A stretch of DNA of 64,000 nucleotides from Escherichia coli (GTDB lineage Bacteria; Pseudomonadota; Gammaproteobacteria; Enterobacterales; Enterobacteriaceae). The DNA lies in assembly GCF_003334785.1 (NCBI RefSeq), contig NZ_QOWV01000001.1, one strand, 5' to 3'. The position numbers were made by a program, and so were the translations under genes. This document shows positions 22,039 through 22,196 of this stretch, piece after piece; the stretch's first letter is position 1; each line of letters starts with the position of its first letter. The notes beneath the pieces are model-generated. The model ran no database searches, was not told where the DNA came from, and saw nothing but the letters and a program-made list of their open reading frames with translations.

Positions 22039-22052
22039 AACAAAAAACCCAT
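22039..22052. repeat. Right copy of 14-bp direct repeat (putative attR core)
   Basis: aacaaaaaacccat, identical to 10452-10465. Confidence 0.55.
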
Positions 22053-22085
22053 CAACCTTGAACCGAAATGGCGGGGTTGATGGGC
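22041..22085 (-). terminator. Hairpin downstream of ybjL overlapping the att core
   Basis: 10-bp stem cccatcaacc/ggttgatggg (22048-22057 and 22075-22084); on the minus strand it is followed by ttttttg. Confidence 0.5.
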
Positions 22086-22196
22086 TCCACAAAATGGGGA
22101 CATCAAAGAAAAGCAGTGGCACTAATTAAGACTGATGCCCTGCGGAAAAGTTCTGCGGTTGTGCAAAAAAATTTCATTTTCAGGGCAACTTCAGTT

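Follow-up and report, generated by a model that had tools for sequence, protein, structure and literature searches.

A P2-like prophage remnant between rcdA and ybjL

The 64,000-nucleotide stretch of Escherichia coli DNA analysed here (the window) carries a deleted P2-like prophage of 11.6 kb (10466-22038) between the convergent bacterial genes rcdA and ybjL. An intact copy of the sRNA gene rybB lies between the right end of this element and ybjL (Table 1). In 5,423 of 5,426 E. coli genomes a 100%-identical match carries the rcdA annotation.

Table 1. Features at the rcdA-rybB-ybjL locus (window coordinates)
Feature	Position	Strand	Basis or remark
rcdA (ybjK), left bacterial flank	9899..10435	+	K-12 annotation; 100%-identical matches
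attL repeat	10440..10465		exact core AACAAAAAACCCAT at 10452-10465; left part TAGAT, the bacterial version; same as K-12 empty site up to 10465
Terminator-like hairpin of int, AACCCGUUU-ACAU-AAAUGGGUU then UUUUUUGUU	10452..10480	-	fold, terminator scan, conservation
ACAATAAGTTAGGTT, two exact tandem copies, P' arm	10488..10521	+	between core hairpin and int stop
Tyrosine integrase (int), P2 family	10540..11592	-	phrog_1, E = 6e-75; adjoins attL
20-mer CTGCCGCCAYTTTGTCGCCA, P'-arm copy	10560..10579	+	found on both arms of divergent attPs
PD-Lambda-1 defence cargo gene, 558 aa, next to int	11675..13351	-	PADLOC PD-Lambda-1, E = 2e-120
CI-type repressor	13372..13968	-	phrog_4, phrog_34054
Dam-type methylase	16115-16972	+	early-gene ORFs lie between it and the repressor
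gpA::gpT fusion ORF, 1034 aa	16969..20073	+	phrog_91; phrog_28/phrog_5690
gpU-like and gpD-like tail genes	20070..21652	+	phrog_76, phrog_52
ogr (late-gene activator), prophage right end	21743..21961	+	phrog_603
20-mer CTGCCGCCAYTTTGTCGCCA, P-arm copy	21964..21983	+	repeat search
attR repeat	22027..22052		exact core at 22039-22052; left part CAGGC, the phage version
rybB sRNA gene, intact	22039..22119	-	Rfam RF00110, K-12 annotation, K-12 sequence identity, fold
RybB terminator stem	22046-22057 / 22075-22086	-	fold; U-tract 22039-22047
Sigma-E-type promoter motif GAACTT-N16-TCTTA, upstream of rybB	22127..22153	-	motif search
ybjL, right bacterial flank	22197..23882	-	K-12 annotation

The element holds a P2-type gene set (ogr, D, U, T, A and repressor), and its ogr gene is annotated as an 'ogr/Delta-like zinc finger' in ~1,100 genomes. 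The integrase shares 39% identity with P2 Int, and the Ints of Escherichia phage vB_EcoM-813R9 and several Klebsiella phages match it at 99-100%. For relatives of the protein encoded beside int, RefSeq uses the names 'SNIPE associated domain' or DUF4041. The equivalent prophage of BL21 has a retron in place of PD-Lambda-1.

Residues 2-434 of the fusion ORF match the gpA replication nickase (N-terminal part) and residues 435-1034 the tape measure protein (C-terminal part). Judged by these two halves, the ORF is the scar of one large internal deletion, roughly 20 kb in size, that took away the head, lysis and most of the tail genes. Intact relatives at the rybB site are ~33 kb long; with 11.6 kb left, the element in the window is a remnant and not a complete phage-producing genome. 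The exact 11.6-kb form was absent from 5,426 complete E. coli genomes, and the same whole-element search found a single genome that covers at least 80% of the element, at 96% identity and with extra DNA. The integration event described below is a presumed one, read by analogy from the intact relatives.

Other features of the window lie outside the prophage. A minimal orphan type I-F CRISPR at 59816-59903, in which a 32-nt spacer separates a single consensus repeat GTTCACTGCCGTACAGGCAGCTTAGAAA (Rfam CRISPR-DR4, 50 bits) from a degenerate one, adjoins tRNA-Ser(GGA) at 59947-60034 on the minus strand; it matches the known E. coli CRISPR remnant of the clpA-infA region. Two intergenic Rfam matches were observed as well, naRNA4 (CssrE) at 34815-34895 (75.5 bits) and ES036 (CssrF) at 33793-33835 (42.2 bits).

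The rybB gene and its terminator at the right junction

When the whole window was scanned with Rfam, a full-length match to RybB (RF00110), covering model positions 1-79 of 79, was obtained at 22039-22117 on the minus strand. Its score is 105.3 bits (E = 1.3e-20), where the gathering score is 40. In K-12 MG1655, rybB (b4417) is annotated on the minus strand in the rcdA-ybjL spacer at the homologous position, and the RybB sequences of the window and of K-12 are identical.

The segment 22039-22092 reads acaaaaaa-cccatcaacc-ttgaaccgaaatggcg-ggttgatggg. The arms cccatcaacc (22048-22057) and ggttgatggg (22075-22084) pair with one another, and aaaaaa occupies 22042-47 of the plus strand. Read from the minus strand, the segment is a 12-bp outer stem followed by UUUUUUGUU, and the 84-nt RNA folds at -25 kcal/mol with a z-score of -2.66 (RNAfold). 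The terminator helix of the Rfam RybB model is this same hairpin. With a stem-loop containing G+C, a T-run directly after it and the transcribed strand as the one that carries both, the fold is that expected of an intrinsic terminator. Our terminator scan of 21500-22600 left it unflagged; the loop is longer than the 8-nt limit of the scan, and the silence is therefore no evidence against a terminator.

A sigma-E-type promoter motif sits between the ybjL stop and the rybB start and is the only match in the window, where 0.01 would be expected. The dependence of rybB on sigma-E is established. Both promoter and terminator of rybB were judged here as motifs.

An earlier note on this DNA had read the hairpin as an intrinsic terminator for ybjL. 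The minus-strand terminator structure is indeed there, while the gene to which it belongs is rybB: the Rfam match, the K-12 annotation and the promoter motif between ybjL and the hairpin indicate that it is the predicted Rho-independent terminator of RybB itself and not primarily that of ybjL. Downstream of the ybjL stop (22197) the scan of 21500-22600 found no further terminator-like site before the hairpin is reached, and for this reason ybjL read-through may end at the RybB terminator too. The ybjL-rybB spacer has a stable fold (z = -3.85) without a T-run. Our search of the literature on rybB/ybjL, and on ryeE/cyaR with P2, returned no data on the 3' end of ybjL.

In RefSeq E. coli records from the NCBI pipeline, rybB was not among the features annotated under our matches, and it was annotated in K-12 only. 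Since these records omit the gene, the sRNA is easily overlooked at this junction.

The attachment core and the hairpin behind int

The two ends of the prophage are marked by a 26-nt imperfect direct repeat (TAA-TTT-AG--AACAAAAAACCCAT) in which 22 of 26 positions are identical and 14 bp form an exact core. At attR the exact core spans the T-tract and reaches 5 nt into one arm of the stem, as the earlier note had described. Written on the strand of the RNA it is AUGGGUUUUUUGUU, that is, the final 5 nt of the descending arm of the terminator plus the U-tract, and these are the last 14 bp of rybB. The prophage thus sits in an intrinsic terminator, its function as such being predicted.

Both the bacterial and the phage attachment site can be rebuilt from the junctions. 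Joining the left side of attL to the right side of attR gave a sequence that agrees with the K-12 empty site in all 414 of 414 positions. The K-12 empty site has the same hairpin, as the earlier note's reading requires. The reciprocal join (left of attR, right of attL) gave the contiguous ogr-attP-int region of Klebsiella phage KP12 with 97.8% identity over 508 nt. The free phages ESSI2_ev129 and ESSI2_ev040 have only ~76% identity and other neighbours on the P arm, yet they too have the core CAGGCAACAAAAAACCCAT, with the palindrome AACCCATTTATATAAATGGGTT after it. Lysogen and empty site encode the same RybB RNA, as in the restoration of an RNA gene. Beyond the U-tract of RybB the lysogen has GCCUGAAAU where the empty site has AUCUAAAAC, and this is the sole difference at attR.

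The contiguous empty site was found in 4,295 of 5,426 complete E. coli genomes. The ogr-attR-rybB-ybjL junction occurred in 1,105 and the rcdA-attL-int junction in 1,098 of the same set.

It could be speculated that the repeat arose by chance and that the 11.6-kb segment did not enter by site-specific integration; exact identity does extend over only 14 bp. However, a 17-mer built on the core is present twice in the window where 0.03 copies are expected, excision of the segment restores the K-12 site exactly, both junctions are common to ~1,100 genomes and a free phage carries the predicted attP. We consider the probability of a chance repeat practically negligible, and on these observations it was rejected.

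The mismatches of the imperfect repeat help to locate the crossover. The bacterial site of E. coli has TAGATAAC where that of the phage has CAGGCAAC; the bacterial version is found at attL and the phage version at attR in the window, in BL21 and in ESBL 15, and the attL sequences of the window and BL21 are the same. Because attL retains the bacterial and attR the phage version, the exchange is placed to the right of the mismatches; read from these junction sequences, it must lie within the 14-bp identity AACAAAAAACCCAT. In Klebsiella, attL and attR are identical over 19 bp (the annotated att of phage 4LV2017). Int core-type half-sites around a 7-bp overlap were sought by eye and no convincing dyad was seen; we infer that the overlap region has its exact position somewhere within AACAAAAAACCCAT.

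A second hairpin, aacccattt-atgt-aaacgggtt (10459-10480), was found at attL. On the minus strand it has a 9-bp stem and a 4-nt loop and is followed by TTTTTTGTT; its 5' arm is phage DNA while the 3' arm and the T-tract lie within the core. The structure folds at -9 kcal/mol with a z-score of -2.36, a modest value, as 4 of 200 shuffled sequences folded equally well. A consensus terminator scan flagged it as terminator-like, 60 nt past the int stop, in agreement with the earlier reading of this structure as a minus-strand terminator after int. Both hairpins and the att repeat therefore stand where that note had placed them, and a hairpin with a T-tract is kept on the minus strand at each junction.

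The attL hairpin recurs in 11 independent loci, and three of these are attP sites of free phages (KP12, ESSI2_ev129 and ESSI2_ev040). Across the 11 loci, which represent four variants of the P' arm, pairing is kept by one-sided changes (G.U to A-U, or A-U to G.U). Compensatory covariation is invisible here because the 3' arm is fixed by the core. A search of IMG/VR with the Int protein returned 80 loci whose Ints are 99-100% identical; most of them end 3 nt past the int stop, and L021, L051 and L055 alone reach the core. Being trimmed in this way, most IMG/VR loci are nearly silent on the diversity of attP.

Neither hairpin is a chance structure, given the full-length Rfam match at attR and the recurrence in 11 loci at attL. 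Termination of transcription at the RybB and attL hairpins would follow from their structure plus the T-tract. To judge from its sequence context, the attL hairpin is probably the phage's own int terminator, already complete in the attP of the free phage. The earlier note had proposed that the phage supplies a replacement structure on integration; the presence of the hairpin in the attP of KP12, ESSI2_ev129 and ESSI2_ev040 contradicts this proposal.

One alternative holds that Int or an accessory protein binds the palindrome at attL and attP (AACCCATTTAT / ATAAATGGGTT), that this DNA-level role is its main one and that its resemblance to a terminator is incidental. The palindrome abuts the crossover region, is perfect in the divergent phages ev129 and ev040 and is conserved while the neighbouring P' arm diverges; in addition, the cores of tyrosine recombinases typically hold inverted repeats. 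On the other hand, the arms are 2-4 bp apart, too near to flank an overlap region of 6-8 bp, and the overlap must be left of the palindrome, in the 14-bp identity. The run of six Ts has the correct orientation, at the scan-flagged position behind int. We regard this explanation as rather unlikely, and the palindrome may have a dual role, acting at the DNA level and as a terminator.

A different alternative concerns the target. According to it, the phage entered a plain intergenic terminator common to the convergent genes rcdA and ybjL and brought a substitute for the disrupted function. The hairpin does lie between the two genes, and read-through from ybjL plausibly ends there as no other terminator-like site follows its stop. 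Nevertheless, this hairpin is part of a full-length RybB match, rybB is annotated in K-12 and has its own promoter motif upstream, and nothing was disrupted, as attR equals attB through the whole RNA. The supposed substitute pre-exists in the attP of free phages, faces int and not rcdA, and is weak and without a T-tract on the rcdA strand. We therefore give this alternative very little credence.

The effect on rcdA was compared between the window (10436-10500, plus strand) and the empty site (locus L001, 661-745, plus strand). The 3' hairpin of rcdA folds at -26.9 kcal/mol (z = -4.0) in the empty site, as against -5.6 kcal/mol (z = -0.08), without a T-run, in the lysogen. According to these folds the attL hairpin is predicted to do nothing comparable for rcdA, and rcdA transcripts could run antisense into int after integration.

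The arms of attP carry two kinds of repeats. The 20-mer CTGCCGCCAYTTTGTCGCCA occurs in direct orientation on both att arms, ~55 bp to the left and ~94 bp to the right of the core. It is kept at similar distances in the divergent attPs of free phages despite differing intervening sequence, and ESBL 15 has it as well, in non-coding sequence. This makes it a candidate arm-type Int binding site and a small lead toward the mapping of Int arm sites; in the literature that we found, a 20-mer kept on both att arms is not described. The tandem ACAATAAGTTAGGTT is likewise a candidate Int arm-type site, perhaps of a second kind.

E. coli ESBL 15 (locus L005, 2690-2730; locus L087, 14900-14930) was observed to carry a full-length prophage at the same site with a divergent P' arm. 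Its attL core has four A's instead of six (AACAAAACCCAT) while attR and rybB are normal, and ~780 bp of odd CCN/GGN-rich repeat sequence separate attL from int.

Integration at rybB and comparison with known systems

We consider it highly probable that the locus represents a P2-family prophage, now a deleted remnant, that integrated site-specifically in the 3' end of rybB, with the gene rebuilt at attR and the core shared with the int terminator. A temperate phage of the P2 family would have entered the 3' end of this Hfq-dependent sRNA gene by site-specific recombination through its tyrosine recombinase, with strand exchange inside the 14 bp AACAAAAAACCCAT. Its attP, having the same 14 bp, would duplicate the part of rybB distal to the crossover. 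A complete rybB (promoter, seed and full terminator) would thereby be reconstituted at attR and the RybB RNA would remain unchanged. In the phage, the same 14 bp would constitute the descending arm and T-tract of the int terminator, with the ascending arm on the P' side. The ascending arm would stay with int on integration, leaving the int terminator identical in attP and attL.

The fate of both hairpins can be understood on this model. The bacterial hairpin survives because the crossover lies at the extreme 3' edge, within sequence that the phage duplicates exactly. A hairpin with a T-run is found at both junctions because the core serves both terminators, each of which keeps its own ascending arm. 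The terminator half common to rybB and int is a stem arm plus U-tail, predicted to be the Hfq-binding module of RybB.

The rybB gene is already known as an insertion site of P2-like phages, and a very common one. Archer et al. (2011; PMC3032704) gave 'rybB ncRNA' as the site at which P2-like prophages of E. coli W, B and Crooks are inserted, and Hochhauser et al. (2023; PMC10121019) described an E. coli defence hotspot (#29) with only Felsduovirus prophages within rybB, in 109 genomes. These 'Rybb' prophages share with the window the rybB site between rcdA and ybjL and the phage family. They also have defence cargo next to int, as the window does (retron Ec86 in strain B, PD-Lambda-1 in the window). 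In contrast to them, the copy in the window is a different deletion derivative with the gpA::gpT fusion. We found no primary description of the rybB core sequence in the literature on rybB insertions, and in the literature found the core is not described as the exact shared 3' half of the rybB and int terminators.

Other small RNA genes serve temperate phages in a similar way. For P2 and P2-like phages at cyaR (ryeE), and at the Salmonella insertion hot spot ryeA/ryeB (sdsR), attB is likewise the 3' end of an sRNA gene that is conserved in enterobacteria. The 'cyaR RNA' is another P2 site in Archer et al. (2011), where the table entry gives Wphi2 (P2), ogr-D' and P2*B' (PMC3032704). Bobay et al. 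(2013) discussed sRNA genes as prophage targets and cited ryeB and ryeE as known ones (PMC3603311), and sdsR has been described as an attachment site (PMC3333887). The cyaR and sdsR cases differ from the window in the sRNA, the core sequence and the specificity of the integrase, as is reflected in the divergence of the window Int from P2 Int.

The resemblance to insertion into tRNA genes, which the earlier note had drawn, is borne out, as the phage inserted in an RNA gene that is restored at attR. Examples of such insertions are phage 186 in tRNA-Ile, HP1 in tRNA-Leu, and Fels-2 and SopE-phi in ssrA (Williams 2002; PMC3448106), and where relatives of phage 186 insert in tRNA and tmRNA genes, the RNA gene stays intact through their long cores (Nilsson et al. 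2011; PMC3448106). As in those cases, attP duplicates a 3' segment of the RNA gene, one junction has the gene restored, int lies beside attP and the phage family is related. In contrast to them, the target is an Hfq-dependent sRNA, and the 14 bp duplicated (19 bp in Klebsiella) are half of a terminator stem plus the U-tract and not an acceptor or T-arm. The sole tRNA gene in the window is the distant tRNA-Ser. The rybB insertion thus works like a tRNA insertion without being a member of that class.

It is very improbable that lysogeny measurably alters envelope-stress regulation or rcdA expression and that the shared terminator half is more than a docking convenience. If it did, the routes could be the changed sequence past the RybB U-tract, ogr transcription converging on rybB during induction, loss of the strong 3' hairpin of rcdA, or competition for Hfq by the 3' end of int mRNA.

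The main outcome is a corrected annotation, in which an sRNA gene, rybB, takes the place of the "intergenic terminator". The locus illustrates the known rule that phages of the P2 family insert at the 3' ends of conserved RNA genes, which they rebuild. About one fifth of complete E. coli genomes carry an element at rybB, often with anti-phage defence cargo.
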